Origin: Candidatus Nomurabacteria bacterium RIFCSPHIGHO2_12_FULL_42_19
GTDB lineage: Bacteria; Patescibacteriota; Minisyncoccia; Phycocordibacterales; UBA9973
NCBI GenBank assembly: GCA_001786955.1
Contig: MFUM01000008.1
Coordinates: 11,062-75,061 of the forward strand
Reading direction: 5' to 3'
DNA: 64,000 nt
Of this stretch, positions 7,009-41,558 are shown one piece after another. Both the position numbers and the translations under genes were made by a program. Position 1 is the stretch's first letter, and every line of letters starts with the position of its first letter. The notes under the pieces are model-generated. The model had not been told where the DNA came from, did not search any database, and worked only from the letters and a program-made list of their open reading frames with translations.

Positions 7009-7023
7009 TCGCGCTATAATGAC

Positions 7024-7051
7024 GGTTGCGCGACATGATTTCGCGAAATCA
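7024..7051 (+). promoter_or_regulatory. Conserved ~27-nt element (tgcgcgacatgatttcgcgaaatcaat) immediately upstream of pilin-like gene; copy 1
   Basis: 27/29 identical to the element at 7765-7798 upstream of the third pilin-like gene. Contains short inverted repeat cgcga-N8-tcgcg. Confidence 0.4.
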
Positions 7052-7450
7052 ATGAAAAAAACAAAAAAATTCCTAATTTTTATTTCAATATTTTTAATAC
7101 TAGTTATGCCGGTTCTGTCTTTGGCATACACACTTGGAGAACCCTTAGTGCCACCTTGCAGTACAGCAGCAGCACCAGAGCAATGTGGATGGGGTCAGCT
7201 AATGGGGCTTGTCGATAATGTTATTACTTTTATTTTGAAGTATATGGCTGTGCCGATTGCGGCGATAATGTTCGCTTATGCCGGTTTTCTTTTGGTCACA
7301 GCGGGCGGGGAAGCGGCTGGCGCCAGGACGAAAGCCAAGTCAATTTTTACCAATGCGGCAATTGGCTTGATTCTTGCCGTGGCCGCCTGGCTGATTATTA
7401 AGACGATATTGGCAATTTTGGGCTACGAAGGGGCTTGGATTGGATTTTAA
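7052..7450 (+). CDS. TrbC/VirB2-like (T4SS-pilin-like) small membrane protein; signal peptide plus two TM helices
   Basis: ORF track starts at 7019; an in-frame ATG at 7052 (MKKTKKFLIF...) gives a typical signal peptide. Two hydrophobic helices separated by the charged loop 'GGEAAGARTKAKS'. Confidence 0.5.
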   Translation: MKKTKKFLIFISIFLILVMPVLSLAYTLGEPLVPPCSTAAAPEQCGWGQLMGLVDNVITFILKYMAVPIAAIMFAYAGFLLVTAGGEAAGARTKAKSIFTNAAIGLILAVAAWLIIKTILAILGYEGAWIGF

Positions 7451-7737
7451 TATGTGTTACAATTAAAACGATGATTAATAATCCAATACCAAATATAACT
7501 TCAATACCCAATCTCATTCAAACCATTCTGGAAGGCGCGCTGAAAATCGGCATGCCAGTCGTGGCATTGGCGGTTATTTACTGCGGTTTTCTTTTTGTTT
7601 TTGCCCGGGGCAATCCAGAGAAATTGACTAAAGCCAGAGAAGCCCTTCTTTATACATTAATCGGCGCGGCAATACTTCTGGGATCGTGGGCTATTGCCAA
7701 GATGATATCTGCTACCGTGACCGGGCTTGGGTCTTAA
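7435..7737 (+). CDS. TrbC/VirB2-like (T4SS-pilin-like) small membrane protein, divergent paralog
   Basis: Two TM helices flanking the charged loop 'RGNPEKLTKAREA'; same architecture as neighbours. Start uncertain (overlaps previous ORF). Confidence 0.4.
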   Translation: MDWILICVTIKTMINNPIPNITSIPNLIQTILEGALKIGMPVVALAVIYCGFLFVFARGNPEKLTKAREALLYTLIGAAILLGSWAIAKMISATVTGLGS

Positions 7738-7764
7738 AATTATTATTAAGCGTCGCGCTTTAAT

Positions 7765-7798
7765 GGACTTTGCGCAACATGATTTCGTGAAATCAATT
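7765..7798 (+). promoter_or_regulatory. Conserved upstream element, copy 2 (tgcgcaacatgatttcgtgaaatcaat)
   Basis: Near-identical to 7024-7051; ends at the likely true start codon (7799). Confidence 0.4.
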
Positions 7799-8506
7799 AT
7801 GAAAAAATTATTTAAAATCATTCCCATACTTTTTTTTACAATCTTATTTCCAATTATTGCCTTGGCTGATTTTGTGGGTCCTTGTCCTACAGGTACTCAC
7901 TATACCATTTCAGGTTGTGTTCCTGACGGTTTGGGCGGTATATTATACAATATATCAAAACTCCTTAATTTAATTATCCCAGTTTTACTGTCTTTGGGCG
8001 TGGTCTATTTTGTTTGGGGAGTGGTGCGGTATGTTATTGGCGATAGTGAAGAAGCTAAAAAGAAAGGAAGGGACAGAATGATATATGGCATCATCGGCCT
8101 GACTGTTATCACCAGTTTATGGGGACTTGTGAATATCGTCGTTGAAACTTTTGGTATTGGTGGTGCTTCTGCGCCTTCATTAGAACCTTTAACCGGGCCG
8201 GCTTCTACCTGTAATCTTGCAGGCAATCCTAAATTTCAGGATCTTTTATGCTATATCACCCGCATTATTAACGATTCGGTAATTCCTTTGATTTTTGCCC
8301 TGGCTACGGTTATGTTTGTCTGGGGTATGGTAAACTTTTTTATACTTAATGCTGATGAAGAAGTTAAAAGGGCGCAGGGCAAGCAGTTTATGATTTGGGG
8401 GATTGTTGCTTTGGCGGTAATGCTTTCTGTCTGGGGATTGGTCGGAATACTTGGCAGCACCTTTAATGTTGACAGCTCAATTCTTCCACAGGTAACTCCG
8501 CCCTAA
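7799..8506 (+). CDS. Tandem double T4SS-pilin-like protein (two pilin modules fused in one ORF)
   Basis: Two copies of the module '...VYFVWGV..Y.IGDSEEAKKKGRDRMIYGIIGLTV...LWGLVNIV..TFG', starting near residues 80 and 170. ORF track start is 7727; likely start is 7799 (MKKLFKIIPILFF). Confidence 0.55.
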   Translation: MKKLFKIIPILFFTILFPIIALADFVGPCPTGTHYTISGCVPDGLGGILYNISKLLNLIIPVLLSLGVVYFVWGVVRYVIGDSEEAKKKGRDRMIYGIIGLTVITSLWGLVNIVVETFGIGGASAPSLEPLTGPASTCNLAGNPKFQDLLCYITRIINDSVIPLIFALATVMFVWGMVNFFILNADEEVKRAQGKQFMIWGIVALAVMLSVWGLVGILGSTFNVDSSILPQVTPP

Positions 8507-8703
8507 TTTGCCAGCTTATAGATGTTTTACTTTAATTATGCTTGTGCTATAATTAAGGAATAAGAGAAGGATAAATAAGCTTGCTTGTTTATCCCGAACG
8601 AAAGAGTTGATTATATTGTATTTAGTTATATAATTAAGGGACATTATTAGTTATTATAAGGTCGTTTTATTATTAACATTATTATTAGAATATTAGGAAT
8701 CAT

Positions 8704-9096
8704 ATGAAAAAGAAATTAATTGTGTTGTCGGGTTTCGTTTTAGGCTTGGCGCCGGTTGTGGCACTGGCTCAAACTACCGGTGGTTTGGTTGGGTGTACTG
8801 CTGCCAATGCCCCAGGAGGAACTATCCAATATTTAATATGTAAACTGGGTGATCTTCTTAATCTTGTTGTTCCGATTCTTATAGCGCTGGGAGTGGTTTA
8901 TTTTGTCTGGGGAGTCATTACTTATATGATTGGTAGTGATGAAGAGGCAAAAAAAGCGGGAAGAGACCGCATTATCTTTGGTATTATCGGTCTGGCTGTT
9001 ATTATAGCCTTGTGGGGGCTTGTAAGAATATTGACAAATACTTTTGGGGTTCCTACGGCTGGCCAAGGTGTTACTTTGCCGACCACACCTTACTAG
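8704..9096 (+). CDS. T4SS-pilin-like (TrbC/VirB2-like) protein
   Basis: Signal peptide (MKKKLIVLSGFVLGLAPVVALA) and the module 'VVYFVWGVITYMIGSDEEAKKAGRDRIIFGIIGLAVIIALWGLV', near-identical to the modules in 7799-8506. Confidence 0.6.
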   Translation: MKKKLIVLSGFVLGLAPVVALAQTTGGLVGCTAANAPGGTIQYLICKLGDLLNLVVPILIALGVVYFVWGVITYMIGSDEEAKKAGRDRIIFGIIGLAVIIALWGLVRILTNTFGVPTAGQGVTLPTTPY

Positions 9097-9121
9097 TTCA
9101 TAAAGAAAAAGAAGACAAAAT

Positions 9122-9436
9122 ATGGATTTATTTTCTACGAAGATAGTTTACGCCAGTCTTGATTCTTTTATTGGAAAGGTAGACCGGATGATTATAAATC
9201 CGCTTATTTTGTTTCTCTTTGCTTTGGCCGTGGCGTATTTTCTTTACGGTGTTCTGGAGTTTTTTTTAAATCAGGAAAATGATGAGAAAAAAACAACCGG
9301 CAAAAGCCATATGCTTTGGGGTGTTATCGGGATTACCATAATGCTCGGAGTTTGGACTATTCTTGGTATTATTACAAACACCCTAGGGATATCTGGTCAA
9401 ATAAATCCAGAGCAGGGAACAGTAGACTTGAGATAA
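9122..9436 (+). CDS. T4SS-pilin-like small membrane protein, divergent
   Basis: Two TM helices separated by 'NQENDEKKTTGKSHMLWGVIGITIML', similar to the module of its neighbours. Confidence 0.45.
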   Translation: MDLFSTKIVYASLDSFIGKVDRMIINPLILFLFALAVAYFLYGVLEFFLNQENDEKKTTGKSHMLWGVIGITIMLGVWTILGIITNTLGISGQINPEQGTVDLR

Positions 9437-9504: not shown

Positions 9505-10035
9505 CTATTCGTGCTTCAATGGTGTTGCGTGATAGTTCTCTTTGGTGTTAAAAATTATTCTTGTCAATATAACCAGCAACAAAATGAGTATTGCAAACAT
9601 GATCCACTGGATTAATCCGGAAGGCAGGAAACCGCTTATCCCGTAAAAAGCATTGGCTGCGAGACCGCTGTAAGTGTTGGAATTTTTTGTAGATGCAGAT
9701 GATGCTACGGTTTTTACGGCGCTGGCTGTTTTTACTTTTGCTGTTTTTGGAACAGTTGCCGAGTTTTCCGCATTCGGATTTACGCTATTTGAATAGACTA
9801 TCGGTGTAGGCGCGGGAGCCGGAGGGGGAGTATAAATCGGCGGCTGATAAGGAGATTGATTGGCATTATAATAATAACCATCATTATAATAACCATGAAC
9901 CGGTACAAAAACTTCATTAGCAGAAGCCTTGTTAAAAGGCATAAAAATCAAGACAAACGCCAAAATAGCCAATATTTTCAAGCCATAATTTATTGATTTG
10001 TTGTTTATTTTCTTCATATGCAAGTAGTATATCAC
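9505..10035 (-). CDS. Secreted/cell-surface protein, Tyr/Pro-rich low-complexity region, C-terminal TM anchor; hypothetical
   Basis: Signal peptide after the internal Met (MKKINNKS...ASA, likely start ~10017), a 'YYNDGYYYN...PPIYTPPPAPAPTP' region, and a C-terminal hydrophobic helix. Confidence 0.4.
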   Translation of the reverse strand: MIYYLHMKKINNKSINYGLKILAILAFVLIFMPFNKASANEVFVPVHGYYNDGYYYNANQSPYQPPIYTPPPAPAPTPIVYSNSVNPNAENSATVPKTAKVKTASAVKTVASSASTKNSNTYSGLAANAFYGISGFLPSGLIQWIMFAILILLLVILTRIIFNTKENYHATPLKHE

Positions 10036-10083
10036 TTATTAAGATAAAAGTCAAGCGGTTTTCTGGGGACACAAATAGAAAAG

Positions 10084-10121
10084 GCATCGATGGTGCCCTT
10101 TCAGGAAACCGGTCGATGCCT
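10084..10121 (-). terminator. Hairpin terminator downstream of the GC-rich gene
   Basis: ggcatcgatggtgccc...ggtcgatgcc stem followed (minus sense) by a T-rich run; a second hairpin gacgggt-ccatcgaa-cccgtc at 10133-10153. Confidence 0.4.
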
Positions 10122-10158
10122 GGATTTATTAGACGGGTCCATCGAACCCGTCCGGCTA

Positions 10159-10635
10159 CTATCTGCGCCTGTAGCCGATGATGGGGGCGAACACCCCTTG
10201 CCCCCCCTGGAGTCCGCCGCCGTAGGGCGAGGGGACAACGACCTGCAACGGCCGGTGGTCGTCCCGGCTGTTGTCGCGGCGGACTTCGTTGTCCTGGCGC
10301 GATTGTTCGCCGATGTGGCGGAGTCGCTCGACCTCAGCCGTTGTTTCGGCGGCCAAGATTTTTTTCGCCGCTTCGAGAGCAGACTCGGCTTTCACGAGTG
10401 CCAGCTTCGCTTCAGCGATTTTCGTCGCTGCCTCGATTTCCGCGATCTTTTTGTCGGTCGCGGTGACCGTCGTGGCCGTCATGTCGGTCGCCGTCTGTGC
10501 CGACACCGCCAGTGTGCAAGCCTGCCCGGTCGTGGAGCTGAACGCTGCCCCGGCCGTACAGCCTGCCGGGAAGGTTTGCGCCGACGCGGTGCCGACGAGT
10601 CCGAGAGCGAACACGACGACGAGAGTGAGTTTCAT
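10159..10635 (-). CDS. GC-rich gene encoding a secreted coiled-coil protein (signal peptide MKLTLVVVFALGLVGTASA), likely horizontally acquired
   Basis: Strong SD (GAGGAG) 7 nt upstream of the ATG at 10635. Signal peptide, Thr/Ala-rich region, heptad-like 'KKIAEIEAATKIAEAKLALVKAESALEAAKK'. GC content and codon usage are visibly unlike the flanks. The ORF track's 10159..10731 version has an upstream in-frame Met judged unlikely. Confidence 0.5.
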   Translation of the reverse strand: MKLTLVVVFALGLVGTASAQTFPAGCTAGAAFSSTTGQACTLAVSAQTATDMTATTVTATDKKIAEIEAATKIAEAKLALVKAESALEAAKKILAAETTAEVERLRHIGEQSRQDNEVRRDNSRDDHRPLQVVVPSPYGGGLQGGQGVFAPIIGYRRR

Positions 10636-10806
10636 GGTAATCTCCTCGTGAACTGGCGGGGTTAGCCACCGGGTTGATGGTATCTTTTTTTGGGTCTCCG
10701 TGCCTGGAAGCACTAATTTTTTTACTTGCAAACACGGAAACCCAATTATTTTAAAGAGCTGACTACTGGGGATAGTATAGCATATCTATACACAAAAGTC
10801 AAGGGT

Positions 10807-10825
10807 GCCGGGAGGGAAACTCGGT
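10807..10825 (-). repeat. Duplicated 3'-end fragment of tRNA-Leu (tgccgggagggaaactcgg)
   Basis: 18/19 match to the 3' acceptor/T-arm end of tRNA-Leu(TAG) at 10921-10940; no complete cloverleaf. Confidence 0.5.
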
Positions 10826-10834
10826 CACAGGTAT

Positions 10835-10895
10835 TTTTCTACTGAAAAATCCTGCGACCCCGTCTCGGTACGTCTGCCTCCGACTTTCGAGTCTG
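10835..10895 (-). repeat. Repeated tRNA-leader motif (core ttttcagcagaaaa on minus strand), copy 1
   Basis: 14-nt core shared with 11050-11063 and 11663-11676, with a degenerate ~40-nt extension. Confidence 0.4.
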
Positions 10896-10920
10896 GCAAA
10901 AATATATCCCATATATTTTG

Positions 10921-11002
10921 TGCCGGGAGGGAGACTCGAACTCCCAAGGGTTGCCCCACTAGTTCCTAAAACTAGCGCGTATACCAATTCCGCCATCCCG
11001 GC
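10921..11002 (-). tRNA. tRNA-Leu (anticodon TAG), class II with long variable arm
   Basis: Cloverleaf folds by hand: acceptor GCCGGGA/TCCCGGC, anticodon stem CTAGT/ACTAG with loop TTTAGGA, T-loop GTTCGAGTC, discriminator A. Confidence 0.85.
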
Positions 11003-11049
11003 ATGTAAATTCTCTCGTGCTTCGGTCCGCACTTTGTGGTCAGGAATAG

Positions 11050-11095
11050 TTTTCTGCTGAAAACTTTCCCAACCCGGACTCGCTCCGTCTCGCAC
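11050..11095 (-). repeat. Repeated tRNA-leader motif, copy 2 (upstream of tRNA-Leu-TAG)
   Basis: Core ttttctgctgaaaa (plus-strand reading). Confidence 0.4.
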
Positions 11096-11113
11096 AAAGC
11101 ATCCCATGCTTTG

Positions 11114-11186
11114 TGCGCCCTGAAGGGATCGAACCTTCGACCTTATCCTTAAGAGGGATCTGCTCTACCAGCTGAGCTAAGGGCGC
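11114..11186 (-). tRNA. tRNA-Lys (anticodon CTT)
   Basis: Acceptor GCGCCCT/AGGGCGC, D-arm GCTCAGCTGGTAGAGC, anticodon loop CTCTTAA, T-arm GAAGGTTCGATCCCTTC. Confidence 0.85.
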
Positions 11187-11231
11187 AAATATTTTATTTT
11201 TTCAAGAAACAATTATTTATTATCTTATAAT

Positions 11232-11262
11232 CTTTCGACCTACCAAAACAGCTAAGGGCGCA
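11232..11262 (-). repeat. tRNA-Lys-derived fragment (T-arm piece fused to 5' acceptor/D piece)
   Basis: ctttcgacct...cagctaagggcgca matches two separated parts of the adjacent tRNA-Lys. Confidence 0.45.
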
Positions 11263-11348
11263 TATAAATTTTAAAACAGCTATGCCTGCCCGTCCGTAGC
11301 GTAAGCGAAGGCGGGGGCGCAAATAATTTATTTTTTTAAAAAACAAAG

Positions 11349-11432
11349 TGCCCGGGGTGGGAATCGAACCCACATGACCTTGCGGTCGGGAAATTTTAAG
11401 TCTCCTGCGGCTACCAATTACGCCACCCGGGC
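11349..11432 (-). tRNA. tRNA-Leu (anticodon TAA), class II
   Basis: Acceptor GCCCGGG/CCCGGGC, anticodon stem GGAGA/TTTCC with loop CTTAAAA, long variable arm, T-arm GTGGGTTCGATTCCCAC. Confidence 0.85.
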
Positions 11433-11464
11433 AATTATAATGTTTTAATTTTCAAATTACAAAC

Positions 11465-11536
11465 GGAGGCCTGGGGCGGAATTGAACCGCCGTATATTCC
11501 TTTTGCAGAGGAATGCCTTACCACTTGGCTACCAGG
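11465..11536 (-). tRNA. tRNA-Cys (anticodon GCA), discriminator U, CC encoded
   Basis: Acceptor GGCCTGG/CCAGGCC, anticodon stem TTCCT/AGGAA with loop CTGCAAA, T-arm GGCGGTTCAATTCCGCC. Confidence 0.85.
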
Positions 11537-11564
11537 CCTTACACTTTTTCTTGCTAATATTTTA

Positions 11565-11622
11565 TCCTCTGCGCAGAGGAATGGCATATTCGCTACGCTC
11601 ACGCCACTTGGCTACCAGGCCG
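11565..11622 (-). pseudogene. tRNA-Cys pseudo-copy: 5' half with an insertion in the D region, no T-arm
   Basis: ggcctggtagccaagtgg...attcctctgcgcagaggat parallels the tRNA-Cys 5' half up to the anticodon hairpin, then ends. Confidence 0.5.
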
Positions 11623-11662
11623 AATTTTTTTGAAATAGCTCTTCTCAAAATGCACACATAAT

Positions 11663-11710
11663 TTTCTGCTGAAAATTTGCTCTACTCGGCCCAGTCGGCC
11701 TGCGCAAGGC
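11663..11710 (-). repeat. Repeated tRNA-leader motif, copy 3 (upstream of the tRNA cluster)
   Basis: Core ttttctgctgaaaa. Confidence 0.4.
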
Positions 11711-11746
11711 ATTTCTCAAAGACTATTTCAAAACATTCAACTAATC

Positions 11747-12070
11747 CTAACCGTTTCGCAGCAGTTCGTCAATTTTCTGCCTGTTTTTTTCGCCCTGGTC
11801 TATCGCTACGTCCAGAAAAGGGATTATTTTTATCGGCATGCTCTTTTTCAAAAATTCTCGCAGTTCCGATCTCTTGCGTTTCGCAAATTCCAGCGCATCG
11901 TGTTCTTTGGCAGTCGGGAGCACGGTAATGAATATAGTAGCTCGTTTCAGGTCAGGCGAGGTGGTACAGGACATAACCGTGATGAGCGAAGTCCTGTTGT
12001 TTTCGCGCCCCAAAAATTGCGCTGCCAGTTCTTTGATTTGATTCGCTACTTTTTCATTCCTGTTTGTCAT
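11747..12070 (-). CDS. rbfA: Ribosome-binding factor A
   Basis: ~107 aa with a KH-like pattern ('RTSLITVMSCTTSPDLKRATIFITVL'); immediately downstream of infB (conserved infB-rbfA linkage); SD GGAGGAG upstream. Confidence 0.7.
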   Translation of the reverse strand: MTNRNEKVANQIKELAAQFLGRENNRTSLITVMSCTTSPDLKRATIFITVLPTAKEHDALEFAKRKRSELREFLKKSMPIKIIPFLDVAIDQGEKNRQKIDELLRNG

Positions 12071-12079
12071 GATGTTTTT

Positions 12080-12113
12080 CTCCTCCTGCGAAGGGGGAGA
12101 TTAAGAGGGGGTC
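12080..12113. repeat. Short C5/G5 motif element in the infB-rbfA intergenic spacer
   Basis: tctcctcctgcgaagggggagattaagagggggtc; also supplies the rbfA SD. Confidence 0.3.
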
Positions 12114-13690
12114 TATTTCTGCACTACGTTGAACGCTTCTATCATGTCTCCGGCCACAACTTCTATTTTTGATTCAATCATCATCCCAAACTCGGCGCCT
12201 TCTTCCACGATGCTTGTTTTTACCTTGTTTTTTTCTAAATTCACGATTTTTCCGCGGCCAATTTCAAATTCCCGGCGCATTATTTTTACCGTGCTATTCA
12301 GGTTGATTTGTCCTTCAATTACTTTGCCTCCGACTATTTGGCGTTCTTTTGTGCGGCTAAAAGCCCGGATAATTTTTGCCCGGCCAGTTGTTTCAATTGT
12401 TTCAATTCTCGGTCTTTTTTCTTCCATTTGTTCCTCGAGCCACTCGGTCAGTTTATAAATAATATTAAAAAAAGAAATTATTACTCCTCTTTTTTGCGCG
12501 ATTTCTATGGCGCTCTTGTCGGTCTTCACGTTGAATCCGATGACCAGCGCGTTAATGCCGGATGCCACTCCTTTTATATCCGATTCGGAAATAGGCCCGA
12601 TGCCTTTTCCGACAATTCTGAATTCGGCATTCTTGCTTACGGTGGCGTTAAGCTCGGAGTTTATTTTGGCGATTTCTTTTTCAATAGCTTCAATTGAGCC
12701 GGAAACGTCGGCTTTTAATATTATCGGTATTACTTTTTTACCACTCCCAACCCCCTCCTTATCAAGGCGGGGAATTTCTCCTCCTCGTTGAGGAGGAGTG
12801 TCTGAAGGGTGAGGTGGTAAATTTTTGGCATATTTTTCAGCGTCCGATTTTTTTTGAAAAGATTTGAATTGCGCTCCGACTCTCGGCATCTTGTCAAAAC
12901 CCACAATGCGTATCGGGGAAGAAAAACTGGCTTCGTCTATCATTTTTCCCGAAAAATTTTCAATTATTCGCGTGGAGCACAGGCTGTCTTCCACGACGAC
13001 GGTCATCCCTTTTTTAATTGACCCGTTTTTTATAATCAAAGTTGCCAGTATTCCGCGCCTGGAATCTAGATTTACTTCGATTACAAAGCCGGAAGCGTCT
13101 TCTTCAATGCTGCCGGTCAAATTTTCCATTTCAGCTAAAATCAAGATTAGCGACAGCAGATTGTCTATTCCCGTGCCGATTTTCGCGGAAATTTCCGCGT
13201 AAGGGACTTTTCCTCCGTAATTTTCCAGATAAATTTCATTTTCCGCCAATTCTTTTTTTGTTTTTTCTACATTGGCGCCCGGCTTATCTATTTTATTTAT
13301 TGCGACAATACACGGAGTTTTGGATTCTACGATGGTTTTCCAGGCCTCAATCGTTTGTGGTTTTACGCCATCTTCAGCCGAAACGACCAGAATGGCAATG
13401 TCAGCTATTTGCGCACCTCGTTCCCGCATTTTTGAAAAAGCCTCGTGTCCGGGAGTGTCCAAAAAAGTTATTTTTCTATCTTTCCCATTTTCACCTGCCT
13501 GCGCAGGCAGGTCTTTATGCACAACTTCATAAGCGGAGATTTTCTGAGTTATGCCTCCGGCTTCATTTTCAGTGATATTCGTCTTCCTGATATAATCAAG
13601 CAACGTTGATTTTCCGTGATCAATATGGCCCATAACAACTACTATAGGCGCACGAACCTCCAAATTTAATTTTTTGTCATTTTTTTCCAT
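12113..13690 (-). CDS. infB: Translation initiation factor IF-2 (short form lacking the N-terminal domain)
   Basis: G-domain 'VVVMGHIDHGKSTLLD', 'DTPGHEAF', 'NKIDK'; beta-barrel domains C-terminal to it. Carries an in-frame GC-rich insert (see repeat 12741-12817). Confidence 0.9.
   Translation of the reverse strand: MEKNDKKLNLEVRAPIVVVMGHIDHGKSTLLDYIRKTNITENEAGGITQKISAYEVVHKDLPAQAGENGKDRKITFLDTPGHEAFSKMRERGAQIADIAILVVSAEDGVKPQTIEAWKTIVESKTPCIVAINKIDKPGANVEKTKKELAENEIYLENYGGKVPYAEISAKIGTGIDNLLSLILILAEMENLTGSIEEDASGFVIEVNLDSRRGILATLIIKNGSIKKGMTVVVEDSLCSTRIIENFSGKMIDEASFSSPIRIVGFDKMPRVGAQFKSFQKKSDAEKYAKNLPPHPSDTPPQRGGEIPRLDKEGVGSGKKVIPIILKADVSGSIEAIEKEIAKINSELNATVSKNAEFRIVGKGIGPISESDIKGVASGINALVIGFNVKTDKSAIEIAQKRGVIISFFNIIYKLTEWLEEQMEEKRPRIETIETTGRAKIIRAFSRTKERQIVGGKVIEGQINLNSTVKIMRREFEIGRGKIVNLEKNKVKTSIVEEGAEFGMMIESKIEVVAGDMIEAFNVVQK
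12741..12817. repeat. G/C-rich palindromic mini-element inserted in-frame in infB (encodes ~PPHPSDTPPQRGGEIPRLDKEGVGSG)
   Basis: 'ccactcccaaccccctccttatcaaggcggggaa...gaggaggag...gaggtgg'. Shares its opening CCAC(C/T)CCCAACCCC(C)TCC with the typA insert at 19781-19797, and the ccttatcaagg core with mnmA copy C (26131-26207). Confidence 0.55.
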
Positions 13691-14185: not shown

Positions 14186-15457
14186 ATGCCTAAATCAAAT
14201 AAAAATAAGCTAAAAAATATATATCTTGACTATGCCGCTTCGGTCTCGGCTAACCCAAGTTCGATACATTTACTGGGAACAGAAGCCAAAAATGAACTTC
14301 AAAATGCGCGGAGAGTTGTTGCGGGGGTTTTGGGCGTCCGATTCGAAGAAATAATTTTTACGAGCAACGGCACAGAAAGCAATAATCTTGCAATTCAGGG
14401 AATAATTTATGCTGCAGAAAAGCCAGGTTTTCTTCCGCATATTATAACCACCAATATAGAACATCCTTCTGTGTTTGAAACCTGTAAGTTGCTGCAAAAA
14501 AGAAAACTGGCGGAAATTTCTATCATACCGGTCGAGGAGAGTGGAATAGTGGACCCTAAAAAAATAAAAAGAGAAATTAAAAAAAACACGGTGCTTGTTT
14601 CGGTAATGTATGCGAACAATGAAATTGGAACCATCCAGCCGATAAAAGAAATTGCAAAAGAAATTAGACACTTTAAGAAAGTGAAGGCAGGAAGTTTTTC
14701 GAATGGTCTGGCCGGGATTGGGCTGGAATCTGCCCTAAAGACAGATTCCAAAGAGAACCGAGGACCTGAGAAAAATTTACTGCCTTCACGAACTTATCCT
14801 TTTTTCCACACTGATGCTGTGCAGGCGGCAAATTATCTTGATTTAAATGTGGAGAAACTCGGTGTAGATATGTTGACGCTCTCCGGTTCAAAAATTGAAG
14901 GAGCAGGCAGGGTGGGGGTTCTTTATAAAAAGAAGTCAGTACCGCTTGCACCGATATTCGGTGGAGGGGATCAGGAAATGGGACTGCGGCCTGGGACGGA
15001 AAATTTACCGGAGATTTTAAAATTTGTTGAAGCGTTAAAATTAGTCCAGAATGTAAAAGAAAAAGAGGCGAAACGTTTAGCCAAACTCCGCGATTATTTC
15101 ATAAATAAAATTTTTAAAAATACTAGAAACTCAGCGATAGCAGAAAGTTTAGTAATTTTGAATGGAGACGGTAAGAAGCGTTTACCGAATAATGTAAATA
15201 TTAGTTTTCCAAAAATTCCGAGTGATCTTTTAGTTATTGAACTTTCAGCCAAAGGTATAATGGTGTCTTCAAAAAGCGCCTGCAAAAGCGGAGAGAGTGG
15301 AGGTTCGTATGTTATCAAAGCGATACATCCTGAAATAGATTCTGAAACCGGCGGATTGCGTTTTTCATTAGGCCGACAGACAACTAAATCTGACATCGAT
15401 TATACCGTTAAAGTTTTATCCGAAATTTTGACAAAACTGAAAAAATGGTATAATTAA
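14186..15457 (+). CDS. Cysteine desulfurase (NifS/IscS family, class V aminotransferase) with a ~35-aa lineage-specific insertion
   Basis: 'LDYAASVS', 'FTSNGTESNN', 'HTDAVQA', PLP-lysine in 'LSGSKIEGAGRVGVLY'. Extra segment 'FKKVKAGSFSNGLAGIGLESALKTDSKENRGPEKNLLPSRT' lies between conserved blocks. Confidence 0.8.
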   Translation: MPKSNKNKLKNIYLDYAASVSANPSSIHLLGTEAKNELQNARRVVAGVLGVRFEEIIFTSNGTESNNLAIQGIIYAAEKPGFLPHIITTNIEHPSVFETCKLLQKRKLAEISIIPVEESGIVDPKKIKREIKKNTVLVSVMYANNEIGTIQPIKEIAKEIRHFKKVKAGSFSNGLAGIGLESALKTDSKENRGPEKNLLPSRTYPFFHTDAVQAANYLDLNVEKLGVDMLTLSGSKIEGAGRVGVLYKKKSVPLAPIFGGGDQEMGLRPGTENLPEILKFVEALKLVQNVKEKEAKRLAKLRDYFINKIFKNTRNSAIAESLVILNGDGKKRLPNNVNISFPKIPSDLLVIELSAKGIMVSSKSACKSGESGGSYVIKAIHPEIDSETGGLRFSLGRQTTKSDIDYTVKVLSEILTKLKKWYN

Positions 15458-25145: not shown

Positions 25146-25254
25146 AATCAAATTGTCAAACTTTTCGAAACATGAATTTTTCCGGTACGGATTTTTTAAA
25201 GCTTAAAAAATCCTGAAATTCTCGCGCCGTCGCGCTCGAAACCCCTTCAAAATT

Positions 25255-26433
25255 ATGTTTCAAAAAGTTCTATTATTTATGAAGAAAAAAAAAGTATTTG
25301 TCGGACTTTCGGGGGGCGTAGATAGCGCTGTGAGTGCTGCAATCCTGAAGAAAAAAAATTATGAAGTTGTCGGGGTTTTTATCAAAACCTGGCACCCGGA
25401 CTTTTTAATATGCAATGAAGAAGAAGAACGCCGGGACGCTATGCGTGTGGCGGCCTTTTTAGATATCCCATTCCTGGCTTTTGATTTTGAAGATGTATAT
25501 AAAAAAGAAGTTGCCGATTATATGATTAGGGAATATAAAGCCGGCAAAACGCCTAATCCGGATGTGATGTGTAACAAAGAAGTGAAGTTCGGCATTTTTC
25601 TTAAAAAAGCGTTGTCTATGGGGGCGGATTATATAGCGACAGGACATTATGCAAGAGTGAGCGGGGCAGGGAATTCTTTTTCTCGGGAATATCCTGCTTC
25701 GCATCGTCACCACTCAAAAAAGTATTCCCTGCTCCGCTCCCCGGATAACACGAAAGACCAGAGTTATTTTCTTTGGACGCTCAAACAGGAGCAATTAAAG
25801 AAGATTTTATTTCCCATCGGGCATTTAAAAAAAACGAAAGTCCGCAAATTGGCAAAAAAATTCAATTTACCGGTTGCGGAAAAAAAAGACAGCCAAGGCA
25901 TATGCTTTTTGGGCGCGGTGGATTTAAAAGAATTTTTAAAGCATTATATCAAGTCTAAAAAGGGGAAAGTGTTGGACGAAAAAGGAGAAGAAATAGGTTT
26001 TCACGATGGCGTTGCATTTCATACACTGGGAGAAAGGCATGGTTTCACGATTACTAAAAAAAGTCCGGCTGGCGGTCCGTATTACATAGTAGGCAAAAAT
26101 GTAAAGAAGAATATTTTAATTGCTTCTCAAATCCCCCCTGATAAGGGGGGACAAAGGGGGGTTGAATTTAAAAAACCCCTCCCGACCTCCCCTTATCAAG
26201 GGAGGCTAAAAATACAAATAGAAAATACAAATTGGATTACTAAAGTCCCAAACCCAAAAAAGACTTACACGGCTCAAATCCGCTATCATGGCGAATTTTT
26301 ACCCTGCAAAGTAATTTGCGCAAAGTCGAATTTTGCACAGGTGATTTTTGAAAAGCCGATTTTAGTTGCCTCCGGCCAGTCTTGTGTTGTTTATGACAAA
26401 GATATTTGCTTGGGCGGGGGAGTAGTTGTATGA
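25255..26433 (+). CDS. mnmA: tRNA-specific 2-thiouridylase MnmA
   Basis: PP-loop 'VGLSGGVDSAV'; catalytic Cys regions 'NPDVMCNKE' and 'SQGICFLG'. Carries an in-frame G/C-rich insert. Confidence 0.85.
   Translation: MFQKVLLFMKKKKVFVGLSGGVDSAVSAAILKKKNYEVVGVFIKTWHPDFLICNEEEERRDAMRVAAFLDIPFLAFDFEDVYKKEVADYMIREYKAGKTPNPDVMCNKEVKFGIFLKKALSMGADYIATGHYARVSGAGNSFSREYPASHRHHSKKYSLLRSPDNTKDQSYFLWTLKQEQLKKILFPIGHLKKTKVRKLAKKFNLPVAEKKDSQGICFLGAVDLKEFLKHYIKSKKGKVLDEKGEEIGFHDGVAFHTLGERHGFTITKKSPAGGPYYIVGKNVKKNILIASQIPPDKGGQRGVEFKKPLPTSPYQGRLKIQIENTNWITKVPNPKKTYTAQIRYHGEFLPCKVICAKSNFAQVIFEKPILVASGQSCVVYDKDICLGGGVVV
26131..26207. repeat. G/C-rich palindromic mini-element inserted in-frame in mnmA (encodes ~IPPDKGGQRGVEFKKPLPTSPYQGRL)
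   Basis: 'atcccccctgataaggggggacaaaggggggttgaatttaaaaaacccctcccgacctccccttatcaagggagg'; contains both orientations of the CCTTATCAAGG/CCCTGATAAGGGG core. Confidence 0.55.
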
Positions 26434-35373: not shown

Positions 35374-35396
35374 CCGGCCTGCGCCGGCTTTTTTTG
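35374..35396 (+). terminator. Rho-independent terminator after rpsI (gccggcctgcgccggc + T7)
   Basis: GC stem followed by ttttttt. Confidence 0.7.
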
Positions 35397-35505
35397 CGCT
35401 TGCTCGGCCGGAGCTTTATTGTGAGTAGTAGCGAACAAAAGCGAGGCGGGGGCTGCGACCGAGTCTGAGCGACGGCGAGGACGAGAGTTGTGGTCTAAGA
35501 GATAA

Positions 35506-36193: not shown

Positions 36194-37849
36194 ATGAAAA
36201 CAGAAGCAAAAATCTGTGTTGATTGTAAAAAAGAATTCGAAATAAATTCGGGTGATTTGAATTTATACGAAAAAGTCGATATTGAATTGCCGACACTCTG
36301 TTTTTTTTGCCGAATAAAACTGCATTTATCTTTCTGGATGTTTGGAAAATTTCGTAAAGGTAAATCAGACCTCTCGGGGAAAAGTCTGATTACGGTTTTA
36401 CCGGAGATAAACAGGTATCCTATTTATACGCTTCACGAATGGCATAGTGATAAATGGGATGCTATGAATTTCGGGATAGATTATGATTCAAGCAGACCTT
36501 TTTTTGAGCAATTAAAAGAATTACAGGAAAAAGTTCCTCATCCGCATCAAAATGGCATAAAAAATACCGGATGCGATTGGTGCGATGATGTTTGGAATTC
36601 TAAAAATTGCTACCTTTCTCGTTCAATGGAAGAATGTGAAGATTTATACTATTCATATCGAAATGTTAAGGTGAAGAATTCTATAGATATGACCATCTGC
36701 TTTAACACAGAAAAATCTTATGATTCCGGTGATTGTCATAATTCATTCAGACTCTTTTATTCCAAGCATTCTCGTGATTGCATAGATTCACTTTTTTTAT
36801 ATGATTGCCGAAATTGCCAGAATTGTTTTATGTGCTGGAATTTACGCAATAAGTCATATTACATAGAGAATATTCAATACACAAAAGAAGCATACGAAGA
36901 AAAATTAAAATCATTTCAACTCGGTTCATATAAATTTATTCAATCTCTTAAAAAAAATTTTGAAGAAATAATCAAGAAAGAAGCAATTCATAGGGGAAAC
37001 TTCAACTTAAGAACATATAATTCAGACGGAGACTACTTATTGGATGTTAAAAACTGCCATAACTGTAATACCATTAGTGATTCGGAAGATTGTTGTAATT
37101 GCATTCGCGGGTTACATCAAAAATCCGACATTGATTCCGATGGTTGCTGGTATTCCGAAATGATAGGAAATTGTAGTTGTTGTATAGGGGGATATGCTCT
37201 TAAGTATTCTACTTGGTCCTCTTCGCGATATTCAGAGTATTTGGATTTGTGTATTGAGTGTGAATATTGCTTCGGCTGTATTGGATTAAAGAAAAAAAAG
37301 TATTGCATTTTAAATAAGCAATATAATAAAGAAGAATATGAGATTTTGAAAAATAAAATTATTTCTGACATGAGAAAAAGAGGGGAATACGGTCAATTTC
37401 TGCCCTATTCTATGAGCGCTGGTCCCTTCAACTTTTCTACCAGTTTTTTATATTTTCCGGAAACCAAAAAGGAAGATATTTTTAAACTCGGCGGTTATTG
37501 GGAAGATATAAGCGAAAATCAAATTGAAGGTATGCCGACGAACGAACTGCCCGACGATATAAAAGATGTTCCGGACACCATAATAAAAGAGGCTCTGATA
37601 TGCCCCGAAACAGGTTGGCGTTTCAATATTGCCCAAAATGAGCTTTCTTTCTATAAGGAAAACAATATTCCACTTCCGCGATATCATTTTGATGTACGAA
37701 CCAAAAATGCCCTGAAATACCTGACTGTCCTGGAATCTTACCCTTACAAATGTTTTTACTGCAAAAAGGATATAATGGCCTATTATCCGCCGGAATGGGG
37801 CTACCAAAAAATAGCCTGCGAGGAATGTTATAAACAGAATATCGCATAA
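36194..37849 (+). CDS. Cys-rich paralog 1 (551 aa; most divergent; N-terminal CxxC-x17-CxxC zinc-ribbon-like motif, Cys-rich central modules)
   Basis: Shares 'CRNCQNCFMCWNLRNKSYYIENIQYTKEAY' and 'CFGCIGLKKKKYCILNKQYNKEEYE...GEYGQFLP' blocks with the other five paralogs. No signal peptide. Confidence 0.6.
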   Translation: MKTEAKICVDCKKEFEINSGDLNLYEKVDIELPTLCFFCRIKLHLSFWMFGKFRKGKSDLSGKSLITVLPEINRYPIYTLHEWHSDKWDAMNFGIDYDSSRPFFEQLKELQEKVPHPHQNGIKNTGCDWCDDVWNSKNCYLSRSMEECEDLYYSYRNVKVKNSIDMTICFNTEKSYDSGDCHNSFRLFYSKHSRDCIDSLFLYDCRNCQNCFMCWNLRNKSYYIENIQYTKEAYEEKLKSFQLGSYKFIQSLKKNFEEIIKKEAIHRGNFNLRTYNSDGDYLLDVKNCHNCNTISDSEDCCNCIRGLHQKSDIDSDGCWYSEMIGNCSCCIGGYALKYSTWSSSRYSEYLDLCIECEYCFGCIGLKKKKYCILNKQYNKEEYEILKNKIISDMRKRGEYGQFLPYSMSAGPFNFSTSFLYFPETKKEDIFKLGGYWEDISENQIEGMPTNELPDDIKDVPDTIIKEALICPETGWRFNIAQNELSFYKENNIPLPRYHFDVRTKNALKYLTVLESYPYKCFYCKKDIMAYYPPEWGYQKIACEECYKQNIA

Positions 37850-37963
37850 CAGATTTTCACGGTCGCGATAAAGTGTTATATTTAAAAATGAATCAAGAAA
37901 CTAAACAATGCCAAAACCCCGAACCAGAGCGAAGCTCGGTACGGGGCAGGTTGTAAAAAAGAT

Positions 37964-39667
37964 ATGGAGTATAAATCACAAAATGTGGTGTGTCAGAACT
38001 GTAAAGGTAATTTTATAATAGAGCCGGAGGATTTTTATTTCTATGAAAAAATAAAAGTCCCTCCGCCAACCTGGTGCCCGGAATGCCGGCAGCTTCGCCG
38101 CTATGCCTGGCGTAATGAACGCACCCTATACAGAAGGAACTGCGATTTATGCGGCAAGAACACGGTAACGATTTATTCTCCAAATAAGCCGCACAAGATG
38201 TATTGCCAGCCCTGTTGGTGGGGCGACGGCTGGGATCCGGCTTCCTATGGCCGTGATTTTGATTTTTCTCGGCCTTTTTTCGATCAATTTGCCGAATTGC
38301 AATTGGATGTGCCCCGCATGGCGCTCCTGAGTAAAAACAGCGTAAATTCAGAATACACCAACCATTCAGGGGACAATAAGAATGTTTACCTTTCTTTTGC
38401 AGCTTGGTCAGCCGAAGACGTTCTTTATAGCACCTGGGTTATGAAGTCCCGTGATTGTATGGACTGCAGTTTTGTTTACGATAAAGGCGAACGGCTGTAT
38501 GAAATAATCGATTCCCGAACCTCTTACGAGTGCCAGTACGGGCTATTTTTAAAAGATTGTTCCTCTTGTTACTATTGCTATGATTGCCGCGGGTGCAACC
38601 ATTGTTTTATGTCTTCTAACTTGCGCAATAAAAGTTATGTTTTTAAAAACAAACAATACACTCGGGAGGAATATTTAAAAAAAATAAAAGAATACGAATT
38701 ATCTTCTTTCTCAGCGCGAGAAAAACTGCAAAAAGAATTCCAGGACTTGATTGAAAAGGGTTCCATTCACCGCTACATAATCAGCGAACGTAATGTGAAT
38801 TCTGTCGGTTCTCTGATTTTTGACTGCAAAAATGTGACTCAATCTTTTGAAGTGAACAATGGGGAAGACAGCAAGTATATCTACGGCGCTCTGGATTTGA
38901 AAGATTGTATGGATATATATCATGTTGGATGGGCCACTACCGCGCTTGATTACGAATGCCATGGCTGCACTCGGATTTATGATTGTAAATTCTGCCATCT
39001 TTGTTATGACGACAACGGCGTGTCGTATTCCGACAGTTGCCAAAACAGCCAGAACCTTTTTGGTTGCGTGAGTATAAAAAAGGGCGAATATATGATTTTC
39101 AATAAAAAATACTCAAAAACCAATTATCTAGCGCTTAAGGAAAAAATAATAGAGCATATGAGAAAAATAGGAGAGTATGGGGGATTTTTCCCGCCGGCAA
39201 TTTCCCCAGTCGGCTACAACGAAACACAGGGGGCACTCTATGCTCCAATGACAAAAGAAGAAGTTTTGGCCAAGGGCTGGAAATGGGAGGAAAACATTCT
39301 GGGCACTTTCGGCAAAGAAACTATATTTCTCTCCGACATACCGGACAAAATTGAGGATGTTCCCGATAGTTTCTTGAAAGAAGTATTTTCCTGTATGGAA
39401 TGTTCCAAGAATTACAATATTACTCAAAATGAACTTCTTTTTTTGAAAAAAGAAAAAATTCCTTTACCCAGAAAGTGCCCGAATTGTCGTTACAAAAGAA
39501 GATTTAACCTCCGGCCTTTGCGAAAATTATGGCACCGGAGTTGTATGTGCGGTAAATCGGAGCACGGGCATTCGGCTAAATGCCCGAACGAATTTAAGAC
39601 CCCCTATGCCCCCGACCGGCCGGAAAAAGTGTATTGTGAGAGCTGCTACAACAAAGAAGTGTATTAA
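37964..39667 (+). CDS. Cys-rich paralog 2 (567 aa); double zinc-ribbon-like N-terminus and C-terminus
   Basis: N-term 'CQNCKGNFIIEPEDFYFYEKIKVPPPTWCPECR...CDLCGK...YCQPC'. C-term 'CMECSKNYNITQNELLFLKKEKIPLPRKCPNCR...CMCGKSEHGH..KCPNEFKTPYAPDRPEKVYCESCY'. Confidence 0.6.
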   Translation: MEYKSQNVVCQNCKGNFIIEPEDFYFYEKIKVPPPTWCPECRQLRRYAWRNERTLYRRNCDLCGKNTVTIYSPNKPHKMYCQPCWWGDGWDPASYGRDFDFSRPFFDQFAELQLDVPRMALLSKNSVNSEYTNHSGDNKNVYLSFAAWSAEDVLYSTWVMKSRDCMDCSFVYDKGERLYEIIDSRTSYECQYGLFLKDCSSCYYCYDCRGCNHCFMSSNLRNKSYVFKNKQYTREEYLKKIKEYELSSFSAREKLQKEFQDLIEKGSIHRYIISERNVNSVGSLIFDCKNVTQSFEVNNGEDSKYIYGALDLKDCMDIYHVGWATTALDYECHGCTRIYDCKFCHLCYDDNGVSYSDSCQNSQNLFGCVSIKKGEYMIFNKKYSKTNYLALKEKIIEHMRKIGEYGGFFPPAISPVGYNETQGALYAPMTKEEVLAKGWKWEENILGTFGKETIFLSDIPDKIEDVPDSFLKEVFSCMECSKNYNITQNELLFLKKEKIPLPRKCPNCRYKRRFNLRPLRKLWHRSCMCGKSEHGHSAKCPNEFKTPYAPDRPEKVYCESCYNKEVY

Positions 39668-39675
39668 ATATAAAG

Positions 39676-39708
39676 TATTCTAATATTCTATAGAATTATA
39701 GAATAGAT
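39676..39708. promoter_or_regulatory. Inverted copy of the near-palindromic element, upstream of Cys-rich paralog 3
   Basis: tattctaatattctatagaattatagaatagat is the reverse complement of the 36165-36193 element. Confidence 0.5.
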
Positions 39709-39712
39709 AATT

Positions 39713-41455: not shown

Positions 41456-41558
41456 AAACTCTTGAAAACAACTTTTTGCAGGGGTTTTGAGCTTGACGGA
41501 GCGAAAACTTCAGAATTTTTTAAGCTTCAAAAAATTCGTACCGGAAAAAAGTTTGTTT

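Follow-up and report, generated by a model that had tools for sequence, protein, structure and literature searches.

A structured repeat family apparently linked to the 3′ flanks of tRNA genes in uncultured small-genome bacteria

Many uncultured bacteria with small genomes apparently carry a family of structured elements just behind their tRNA genes. The family appears to be previously undescribed, as our literature search found no paper describing the element or carrying its core sequence. Three copies are located in a tRNA cluster within a 64-kb stretch of DNA from a Candidatus Nomurabacteria bacterium (hereafter the window). We consider it an even bet (probability roughly 0.5) that the elements are non-autonomous, tRNA-associated palindromic repeats that are co-transcribed with the tRNAs; a real RNA function of the element may exist as well.

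A preliminary description of the window had reported four intact minus-strand tRNAs, three tRNA-derived pieces and a repeated 14-nt core. Both ARAGORN and Rfam found the four tRNAs, which were the only tRNA genes called, and the three pieces proved to be real, with slightly shifted coordinates (10805-10823, 11232-11261 and 11565-11621). The core, TTTTCAGCAGAAAA, is present on the minus strand in two exact copies at 11662-11675 and 11050-11063 and in one copy with a single mismatch at 10835-10848, and no further site with at most one mismatch was found in the 64-kb window. The features discussed here are the following:

11630-11731, minus strand: element copy A (type A), between rbfA and pseudo-Cys (model R1, folding, orthologues)
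11565-11621, minus strand: pseudo-Cys, a 5′ copy of tRNA-Cys without T-arm (alignment to tRNA-Cys, folding)
11465-11538, minus strand: intact tRNA-Cys-GCA (ARAGORN; Rfam tRNA, 68.3 bits)
11348-11432, minus strand: intact tRNA-Leu-TAA (ARAGORN, Rfam)
11273-11346, minus strand: duplicated tRNA-Lys leader (11321-11346), then the first mini-Lys copy (alignment)
11232-11261, minus strand: second mini-Lys copy, tRNA-Lys nt 1-12 plus GTTTTGGTAGGTCGAAAG (alignment)
11113-11186, minus strand: intact tRNA-Lys-CTT (ARAGORN, Rfam)
11032-11117, minus strand: element copy B, trailer type (model R1, folding, orthologues)
10920-11002, minus strand: intact tRNA-Leu-TAG (ARAGORN, Rfam)
10805-10922, minus strand: element copy C, T-loop type (model R1, folding, relatives)
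10774-10802, minus strand: sigma-70-type promoter TTGACT-17-TATACT, after the tRNA-Leu remnant
10026-10635, minus strand: GC-rich orphan gene region, with the coding sequence at 10159-10635 (64.6% GC) and a terminator at 10078-10102
35393-35494, plus strand: 'long type' copy, GC-rich and with two hairpins, between the rpsI terminator and grpE (alignment to relatives)

The core is the apical hairpin of a conserved unit of about 70-115 nt. This unit comprises two hairpins. The short one has a GACG loop flanked by GA dinucleotides; the long one contains a G·U pair close to its base and ends in the conserved stem-loop UUUUC-AGCA-GAAAA at its apex. Many copies also have an outer helix that closes the hairpins into a three-helix fold. 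In alignments fitted to the model, from which all covariation counts were taken, compensatory changes were observed in 4 pairs among 8 sequences; with 18 distinct sequences pairing holds at 97.5% of the positions, and both sides have changed in 13 of 19 pairs (reached in 0 of 500 shuffles), and with 121 distinct sequences 98.8% pair and 16 of the 19 pairs show compensatory changes. When the partners were shifted against each other as a sliding control, pairing fell to 38-56%. There is almost no variation in the G·U pair, which was retained in 118 of 120 cases. Compensatory changes together with strand-specific G·U pairs mark the element as a structured RNA, with the alignments being fitted to the model.

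The outer helix differs between types. In the T-loop type, an upstream complementary stretch pairs with a copy of the last 18-20 nt of the preceding tRNA, from the T-loop to the discriminator, whereas in the trailer type the helix is made with the tRNA 3′ end and its trailer instead. The tail copy is usually perfect and its complementary partner degenerate. A first test of this helix, ungapped and with one mismatch tolerated at most, hardly showed a signal (8.65 versus 8.04 bp), because T-arm sequences are common to all tRNAs. The duplex energy gave a clearer, though modest, difference (−11.4 kcal/mol versus −8.6 for mismatched flanks, p = 2e-6).

In the window, copy C is of the T-loop type (R1 match 74.7 bits, E about 1e-16; MFE −47.8 kcal/mol, z −4.65). 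Its trailer hairpin takes in the 3′ end of tRNA-Leu-TAG, and GCC-AGACTCG is complementary to CGAGTCT..GGC of the tRNA. This is followed by AAAGTCGGAG, the hairpin GGCA-GACG-TACC, the long hairpin P3 (10823-10859) with the core and finally the duplicated tRNA 3′ end. Three relatives' loci are organised alike, each with an exact repeat of the species' own tRNA tail, and one of them (L045) harbours two tandem units. Copy B is of the trailer type (70.6 bits, E about 1e-15; MFE −42.2 kcal/mol, z −6.77). Here the tRNA-Lys 3′ end pairs with CTTTGTGCG in a hairpin at 11091-11117, the junction reads GAGACGGAGCGAG, the GACG hairpin is cleanly deleted, P3 lies at 11038-11074, and the 3′ flank CACAAAG is able to pair with CTTTGTG. 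Orthologues of copy B are present in the same spacer of nine relatives. Copy A gave a weaker match to R1 (11648-11702, 35 bits, E about 1e-6; MFE −37.9 kcal/mol, z −4.96). It has an outer stem TTGAAATAG..AAATGC / GCATTT..CTATTTCAA, an inner helix GCGCA/UGUGC, a hairpin GGCC-GACUG-GGCC and the apical hairpin with the core. Its orthologues lie upstream of tRNA-Cys in two relatives, with a compensatory change in the outer stem.

In total, the 64 kb hold six related copies, three in the cluster and at least three further. The long-type copy between rpsI and grpE was not detected by model R1 at E ≤ 1, and it aligns to long-type copies of five relatives. It folds better on the plus strand (−36.9 kcal/mol) than on the minus strand (−19.7) and contains the loops GAGTAGTAGCGAA and GAGCGACGGCGAG. 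The preliminary description had rightly pointed to a motif common to the tRNA cluster and the 35.4-kb region: just two sites in the window match GTAGCG..AGCGA.GGCGGGGGC, 11296-11318 and 35428-35453, both in plus orientation, and none of 100 shuffles contained a match to this pattern, which was set after the data were seen. Two additional occurrences of GGCGGGGGC, at 42941 and 56880, were discarded as unrelated, both being located within coding sequence (dnaK and a membrane protein). A second body type (CACCTGGCTATGTARTAGCC) with the same architecture and tRNA position was found in relatives and is not present in the window.

The tRNA-Leu 3′ duplicate is the tail copy that belongs to the outer helix of copy C. 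It is identical to 10920-10938 at 18 of 19 positions and is the only other match to the tRNA-Leu 3′ end in 64 kb at up to three mismatches, where 0 are expected. Exact 19-nt tRNA-tail repeats were found in six relatives. In relatives that lack the element, the 3′ end of tRNA-Leu runs straight onto the promoter that follows the remnant in the window, and in filled relatives the order is tRNA, element, 19-nt copy and promoter. Since the intact tRNA abuts the same downstream promoter in the element-free relatives, the comparison supports the copy as a probable true target-type duplication. As the tail copies lack CCA, which the gene does not encode, they were not copied from a mature tRNA.

Related Candidatus Nomurabacteria species carry the element in the same spacers, and in the relatives' clusters every copy is oriented in the tRNA sense. 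Furthermore, we searched metagenomes and obtained at least 120 stretches. A tRNA on the same strand lies within 400 nt upstream in 85 of 109 copies, covering about 30 different anticodons; an opposite-strand tRNA within this distance was found upstream of none. Within 400 nt downstream, any tRNA was present for 23 of 120 copies. A tRNA-tail copy of at least 13 nt, mostly identical, was seen in 29 copies, and in 27 of these it starts 17-20 nt from the tRNA end. Some copies are located far from tRNAs. At three relatives' loci (L008, L010 and L012), element copies in a cysteine-desulfurase-like gene are translated in frame, and ORFs of 444-445 aa in L012 and L010 stay open through the element. 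Presence is patchy between sister species in an IF2 tree, with 2-4 copies per locus and up to 4 in one 13.6-kb locus. In one relative (L004) there is a hint of empty and filled alleles coexisting in a single population.

The remaining pieces, pseudo-Cys and mini-Lys, represent another two mini-elements that derive from tRNAs and recur. Pseudo-Cys reproduces nt 1-18 of tRNA-Cys (18/18, at 11604-11621) and nt 24-34 (11/11). An 18-nt insert follows nt 18, a hairpin capped by the loop GAGCGTAGCGAA (11589-11600) precedes the copy of nt 24-34, and the anticodon arm is converted to a perfect palindrome, TCCTCTGCGCAGAGGA, at 11565-11580. The construct is also present upstream of tRNA-Cys in eight relatives, and L045 carries a variant without the insert. 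Group I introns have been reported at tRNA position 35/36 (10.1101/2025.07.03.662931). The pseudo-Cys copy stops at this same position, with no intron here.

The first mini-Lys copy consists of GCGCCC (11315-11320), a 31-nt GC-rich insert (11284-11314), which carries GTAGCG..GGCGGGGGC on its plus strand, and ATAGCTGTTTT (11273-11283). The second retains tRNA-Lys nt 1-12 and overlaps a promoter-like sequence, TTGGTA-16-GATAAT (11219-11246). Mini-Lys is also found 40-60 nt upstream of tRNA-Lys in seven relatives, one of them (L031) with two copies. Both mini-elements occupy the former site of the original tRNA 5′ ends, and in relatives they mostly track their own tRNA; pseudo-Cys agrees with the tRNA-Cys allele of each species. 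This recurrence of pseudo-Cys, mini-Lys and the 3′-end copies in several other species, most matching each species' own tRNA allele, speaks against the idea that they are randomly decaying pseudogenes. Intron-containing or split tRNAs were rejected, as neither ARAGORN nor the Rfam tRNA family (RF00005, E ≤ 10) called a tRNA on any fragment.

The tRNA locus is a hot spot of rearrangement and insertion. The loci of relatives show block inversions, swapped tRNA alleles and a LAGLIDADG endonuclease gene (in L031), and the spacers in their clusters range from 1 nt to more than 1.3 kb. In the window, the 64.6% GC gene is an orphan cassette that is missing from the relatives examined, has no Pfam family and has just two database relatives. 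The promoter is present in a second copy at 10026-10054 (minus strand), preceding a conserved 176-aa gene. The earlier proposal of repeated rearrangement or integration at this locus stands as far as the hot spot is concerned; the duplication of promoter/leader-plus-tRNA units that came with it does not, nor does a reading of the fragments as randomly decaying pseudogenes.

According to the reading that we prefer, the elements would be selfish repeats that are frequently gained and lost. Insertion would duplicate the tRNA end, and thereby a single-copy tRNA would be kept intact. The element would be transcribed as part of the pre-tRNA, and its compact fold would allow the tRNA still to be processed. 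A candidate trans-acting enzyme would move the element by recognising conserved loops on a single strand. Several observations run against this. No integrase, transposase or reverse transcriptase was found within 3.5 kb of 120 copies, where clustered ORFs belong to housekeeping families only, nor among the 44 window ORFs scanned, which gave no match to Phage_integrase or any other recombinase family. Viral contigs gave 0 matches to the element, by which a phage origin was rejected. A functional RNA would be expected to show just such a near-invariant G·U pair, conserved loops and strict sense orientation, a perfect tail copy next to a degenerate partner is not predicted by simple decay after insertion, and the covariation counts come from model-fitted alignments.

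Alternatively, the element could be a functional cis-acting RNA domain of the pre-tRNA, or a released small RNA or small ribozyme, which we regard as possible but rather unlikely. The helix formed with the tail copy would then mimic that of the acceptor and T-arm, or rival the tRNA 3′ end in pairing with the complementary stretch, and could steer 3′ processing, quality control or termination. In line with this are the strand-specific structure with its G·U pair and loops, the position always in sense orientation behind tRNAs, the perfect tail copies and the lack of mobility genes found nearby. Moreover, alternative pairings that covary by species are possible among the 3′ end of the tRNA, the stretch complementary to it and the copy downstream, for instance ATTGTG with CACAAT in L010 and GGACTCG with CGAGTCC in L008. 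However, presence at the same spacer differs between sister species, which argues that the element is dispensable, and copies also occur away from tRNAs, antisense and in frame in a coding gene. The clean loss of the GACG hairpin from copy B does not fit either. The families of Rfam 15 (including hammerhead, twister, pistol, hatchet, HDV-like and tmRNA) gave no element match at the gathering score, no known ribozyme or riboswitch family was matched, and at E ≤ 10 the element copies gave only chance-level or terminator-driven matches.

Integration into a tRNA gene classically leaves direct repeats that extend from the T-loop to the 3′ end of the tRNA, and the tRNA-Leu 3′ copy is a direct repeat of exactly this extent. 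The tRNA-end duplicates could be attL/attR scars of larger, integrase-borne elements (a prophage or island) that entered at the T-loop and lost their interior. tRNA fragments that result from integration have been reviewed (PMC9897764), and foreign cargo is found at the locus in the form of the GC-rich orphan gene and the LAGLIDADG gene. We nevertheless hold att scars to be improbable: the approximately 96 nt between the repeats form a conserved unit that covaries and keeps its boundaries across many species and next to many different tRNAs, and are not random deletion debris, no integrase is found nearby, and the GC-rich gene lies outside the repeat-bounded segment. That promoter/leader-plus-tRNA units were duplicated locally in tandem and then decayed, with the 14-mer as a promoter or leader signal along the lines first described, is very improbable. 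Such a duplication would account for the tRNA-Lys leader plus GCGCCC being duplicated over 32 nt (11315-11346 versus 11181-11212, 29/32 identical), for the promoter-like sequence overlapping mini-Lys and for every core being upstream of a tRNA or tRNA fragment. Yet none of the seven promoter-like sites in 9900-12200 overlaps a core, the core forms the end of a hairpin that covaries, the element follows tRNAs family-wide and does not precede them, and the fragments are conserved across species without decay.

A more far-reaching interpretation, which we put forward as doubtful, is that the element represents a genetic parasite or RNA device of a new class, directed at tRNA genes and without an element-encoded protein. 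A conserved RNA (or single-stranded DNA) scaffold might employ the copied tRNA tail, paired or unpaired, as a target-recognition or mimicry module that directs its insertion behind tRNA genes or into the T-loop while regenerating the tRNA end, or that hijacks tRNA-processing enzymes. In these tiny candidate-phyla genomes there is one gene per tRNA, and repeats that regenerate the tRNA end would show how selfish DNA survives there. The family also accounts for 'tRNA fragments' that confuse annotation, and its copies flag sites of frequent recombination through which orphan genes come into these genomes. Being widespread, strongly structured and not in Rfam, it is a concrete candidate for a novel RNA function tied to tRNAs, or for a novel insertion mechanism, and lends itself to testing.

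Among known systems, the omega RNA of TnpB/IscB consists of a conserved scaffold and a 3′ guide from the flank. The element resembles it, in appearance only, in that its conserved scaffold runs directly into 18-20 nt that are specific to the locus and identical to the tail of the neighbouring tRNA. In contrast to omega RNA, the element itself contains the complement with which this 'guide' pairs, neither a nuclease nor a transposase gene was found in or near any copy, and no transposon ends were identified. RNAs are also derived from pre-tRNA spacers and trailers, such as the E. coli 3′ETS-leuZ sponge and plant mitochondrial t-elements. With these the element shares a structured, conserved sequence, presumably co-transcribed with tRNAs, and tRNA-like pieces as possible processing signals, but sister species can do without it, and some copies are remote from tRNAs. 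As in att duplications of tyrosine integrases with T-loop sublocation, an intact tRNA is followed by an insert and a direct repeat from the T-loop to the 3′ end; here, however, the insert is a conserved structured unit of about 96 nt without integrase or cargo, and a complementary tRNA-tail copy is also present.

Rickettsia palindromic elements (RPEs) and MITE-like repeats (ERIC, Correia, REP) are short, palindromic and multi-copy, their enzyme is not encoded in cis, and RPEs are found in frame in genes. Likewise, the element is about 100 nt long, has no ORF and no mobilising enzyme in cis, occurs in multiple copies with long hairpins and is patchy among relatives. Its in-frame presence in protein-coding genes without breaking them recalls RPEs, a likeness of behaviour. 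It is a MITE in the general sense, being short, non-coding and multi-copy with pairing outer arms. It lacks the fixed terminal inverted repeats, fixed short target duplication and nearby transposase of a MITE in the strict sense; its arms are locus-specific and tRNA-derived, and its direct repeat measures 18-20 nt or about 7 nt, depending on the type. Unlike RPEs and MITEs, the element is strongly and directionally tied to the tRNA 3′ flank, builds its outer helix from a copy of the local tRNA tail, and folds into a branched structure whose loops are conserved in sequence and which contains an invariant G·U pair.

The four minus-strand tRNA genes of the window have infB (12113-13690) and rbfA (11747-12070) directly upstream, and are followed by a strong promoter, an orphan gene of 64.6% GC and a conserved gene of 176 aa. 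Contigs identical to the window were found in the groundwater genome bins GCA_001787115.1 and GCA_000997645.1, and at species level its nearest relatives carry the label Candidatus Nomurabacteria or Paceibacterota. ARAGORN and Rfam agreed on the four intact tRNAs and made no other tRNA call in the cluster region. Three tRNA-derived pieces, three copies of a 14-nt core and a motif common to the cluster and 35.4 kb had been reported in a preliminary description; all are present beyond chance, with coordinates off by a few bases at most, and the interpretation given there was partly supported. The cluster contains:

10805-10922, minus strand, copy C of a structured repeat (the element)
10920-11002, minus strand, tRNA-Leu-TAG
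11032-11117, minus strand, element copy B
11113-11186, minus strand, tRNA-Lys-CTT
11232-11261, mini-Lys, a tRNA-derived piece
11273-11346, split copy of mini-Lys
11348-11432, minus strand, tRNA-Leu-TAA
11465-11538, minus strand, tRNA-Cys-GCA
11565-11621, pseudo-Cys, a tRNA-derived piece
11630-11731, minus strand, element copy A

Between tRNA-Cys and tRNA-Leu-TAA, whose spacer measures 26 nt, a promoter-like TTGTAA-17-TATAAT (11434-11462, minus strand) stops 2 nt short of the tRNA; a coincidental match in AT-rich spacer is the probable explanation.

Exact matches to the core occur in the same cluster of other species (related loci L008, L012, L024, L025, L040 and L045). Alignment of the flanks revealed a long hairpin whose apical stem-loop, UUUUC-AGCA-GAAAA, is the core; the core is not, as previously proposed, a promoter or leader, an idea that may hold at mini-Lys alone, where a promoter-like site overlaps. 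The basal stem carries compensatory substitutions (for example GGTTGGGAA/TTCCTGACC, GGTCGCAGG/CCTGTGACC and GGTCGCGAG/CTTGTGACC), and a short GACG-loop hairpin between GAG and CGAG precedes the long one. A covariance model built from 8 copies scored 74.7, 70.6 and 35.1 bits on the three window copies and also matched copies in 13 related species. Pairing reached 97.5% in 18 distinct sequences, with both-side changes at 13 of 19 pairs, and 98.8% in 121 distinct sequences (16 of 19 pairs), counts that are somewhat inflated because the alignments were fitted to the model. None of 500 shuffles attained the observed values in either set, and sliding the partners by 1-3 columns collapsed the pairing. 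One G·U pair is retained in 118 of 120 sequences, and G·U, G-C and A-U replace one another at a second position; the fold is therefore a property of the tRNA-sense strand, as RNA or single-stranded DNA.

A metagenome scan with the hairpin pattern returned at least 120 stretches. Among the matches listed, 109 copies had at least 200 nt of upstream sequence; a same-strand tRNA lay within 400 nt upstream in 85 of these, an opposite-strand tRNA in none. About 30 different anticodons were represented, and the long hairpin lay a median of ~88 nt from the tRNA end. In 29 cases, again among the matches listed, 13 nt or more of that tRNA's tail are repeated directly after the long hairpin; this copy begins 17-20 nt from the annotated tRNA end in 27 of the 29 and is mostly identical. 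A degenerate complement of the tail sits upstream of the junction AAAGCCGGAG, therefore an outer helix can close the element (duplex energy -11.4 kcal/mol; mismatched flanks give -8.6, p = 2e-6). For closure, a second subtype, including copy B, uses the tRNA trailer hairpin's 3′ arm together with CACAAAG, a short trailer-start repeat. Its closing partners covary within each species, as in ATTGTG with CACAAT at L010.

Comparison of relatives accounts for the duplicated tRNA-Leu 3′ end. In element-free relatives (L009, L021, L047 and L048) the promoter TTGAC(A/T)..TATACT directly follows tRNA-Leu-TAG, whereas the window, L008, L019 and L045 have between the two the element and then a 19-nt copy of the species' own tRNA tail. 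The duplicate is thus a target-type duplication that accompanies the element. L045 holds two 120-nt units in tandem, and L005, L012, L025 and L028 carry another element body with the same architecture and tRNA position (behind tRNA-Leu-TAG, tRNA-Leu-TAA or tRNA-Lys). The acceptor-stem alleles of tRNA-Leu-TAG differ widely among close relatives, and L006 has kept a 3′ remnant of an allele other than that of its intact gene.

Pseudo-Cys consists of tRNA-Cys nt 1-18, a hairpin capped by GAGCGTAGCGAA, and nt 24-34 prolonged into a hairpin. At least 8 other species have the construct ahead of their real tRNA-Cys, and in most of them the two segments are identical to their own tRNA-Cys, even where the anticodon stem differs; L049 shows one or two mismatches, and the L045 variant looks derived from a different allele. 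In an inverted Cys block, pseudo-Cys occupies the exact tRNA site of element-free relatives, directly after a TTGAAA-N-TAGATT promoter. Seven other species carry mini-Lys (tRNA-Lys nt 1-12 plus GTTTTGGTAGGTCGAAAG) upstream of tRNA-Lys, at a distance of 40-60 nt. The window has it twice; a 31-nt GC-rich insert interrupts the first copy, before which stands a duplicate of the ancestral Leu-TAA/Lys spacer. Unrelated hairpins in these genomes, some of them tRNA trailer hairpins, have as their cap a 12-nt loop, GAGYRWAGCGAA (window 11589-11600, 35423-35435 and several other loci); the loop contains GCGAAGC or GCGTAGC, similar to a DNA mini-hairpin motif of very high stability.

The preliminary description had called rearrangement or integration at the locus consistent with the adjacent GC-rich orphan gene. 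The databases contain only two relatives of this gene and no Pfam family covers it; it is absent from the relatives' loci examined. The gene makes up a self-contained cassette, having a promoter copy and a terminator of its own, and is inserted in front of the conserved downstream gene's resident promoter; two diverged TTGACT-17-TATACT copies (10026-10054 and 10774-10802, each with a TG extension) flank the gene and terminator (10078-10102). The gene lies outside the repeat-bounded element. Its presence shows that foreign DNA is accepted at the locus; the tRNA fragments are not explained by it.

Other rearrangements were seen in related clusters. L031 carries a free-standing LAGLIDADG homing-endonuclease gene (9614-10261; Pfam LAGLIDADG_3, E = 3e-8) between tRNA-Lys and tRNA-Leu-TAG, adjoining two tandem mini-Lys copies and extending into the tRNA-Leu gene. 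Sub-blocks (Cys plus Leu-TAA, or Lys plus Leu-TAG) are inverted in several species; tRNA-cluster loci noted were L005, L034, L040, L044, L046 and L049. Elsewhere in the window, two runs of three adjacent ORFs of ~550-590 aa without Pfam match (36194-41455 and 47842-53207) are close to genes similar to those for type IV secretion coupling proteins (45708-47810 and 54005-55534), and T4SS-pilin-like genes lie at 7019-9436.

On an IF2 tree, sister species differ in element presence at the same spacer (L008 vs L012, L005 vs L009, L022 vs L021, L010 vs L011 and L014), and loci carry 2-4 copies. Further copies were found outside the cluster:

window 35393-35494, GC-rich copy
window 25150-25262, minus strand, related three-helix element, intergenic
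window 41462-41574, plus strand, the same, 86% identical
L010 4878-4943, L012 5232-5285 and L008 5181-5242, antisense and in frame inside a cysteine-desulfurase-like gene

The two three-helix copies share the hairpin GAG-GCGC-GACG-GCGC-GAG; their long hairpin (GGAUUUUUUAAGCUUUAAAAAAUCC) is another one, and their outer stems are specific to each locus and differ in a compensatory way. The ORFs of 444-445 aa stay open through the in-frame copies. The arms of the L010 copy resemble tRNA-Leu allele ends (GGGCAAG...CTTGCCC), as if moved with the element. In the window's own cysteine-desulfurase-like protein (14186-15457, plus strand) the HTDAVQA motif is preceded by a long variable insert, which may be a decayed copy, since relatives hold intact copies at the same site. 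The metagenome contig L004 is 100% identical to the window over 5960 nt up to the tRNA-Lys 3′ end (L004 5958-5960; window about 11111-11113) and continues with 80-92% identical sequence without copy B. The contig is a chimera of assembly or else comes from a recombinant strain whose breakpoint coincides exactly with the element boundary.

Taken together, we consider a conserved, structured, tRNA-linked element family close to certain (about 95%). No Rfam 15 family matches it, and our literature search found no paper describing it. The odds that the family is selfish and non-autonomous, a repeat and not a functional RNA domain, are about even. The strict sense orientation, conserved loops, nearly invariant G·U pair and perfect tRNA-tail copies would fit a role at the RNA level, yet such a domain is rather unlikely. 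Gain, loss and mobility are indicated by the differences between sister species, the multiple copies per locus, the further copies in the window and the in-frame copies inside a gene. Against a simple transposon, no integrase, transposase or reverse transcriptase was found near the 120 copies among the matches listed or among 44 window ORFs scanned, and the hairpin pattern had no match in viral contigs.

With integrase att scars, the element has in common a direct repeat running from the T-loop to the tRNA end, but it comes without integrase and cargo. Its in-frame copies in a gene whose ORF stays open behave as Rickettsia palindromic elements do. Closest in working are small palindromic non-autonomous repeats, from which the element differs in being tied, in a fixed orientation, to tRNA 3′ flanks, in building its outer helix with the tRNA tail and in having a conserved branched fold.
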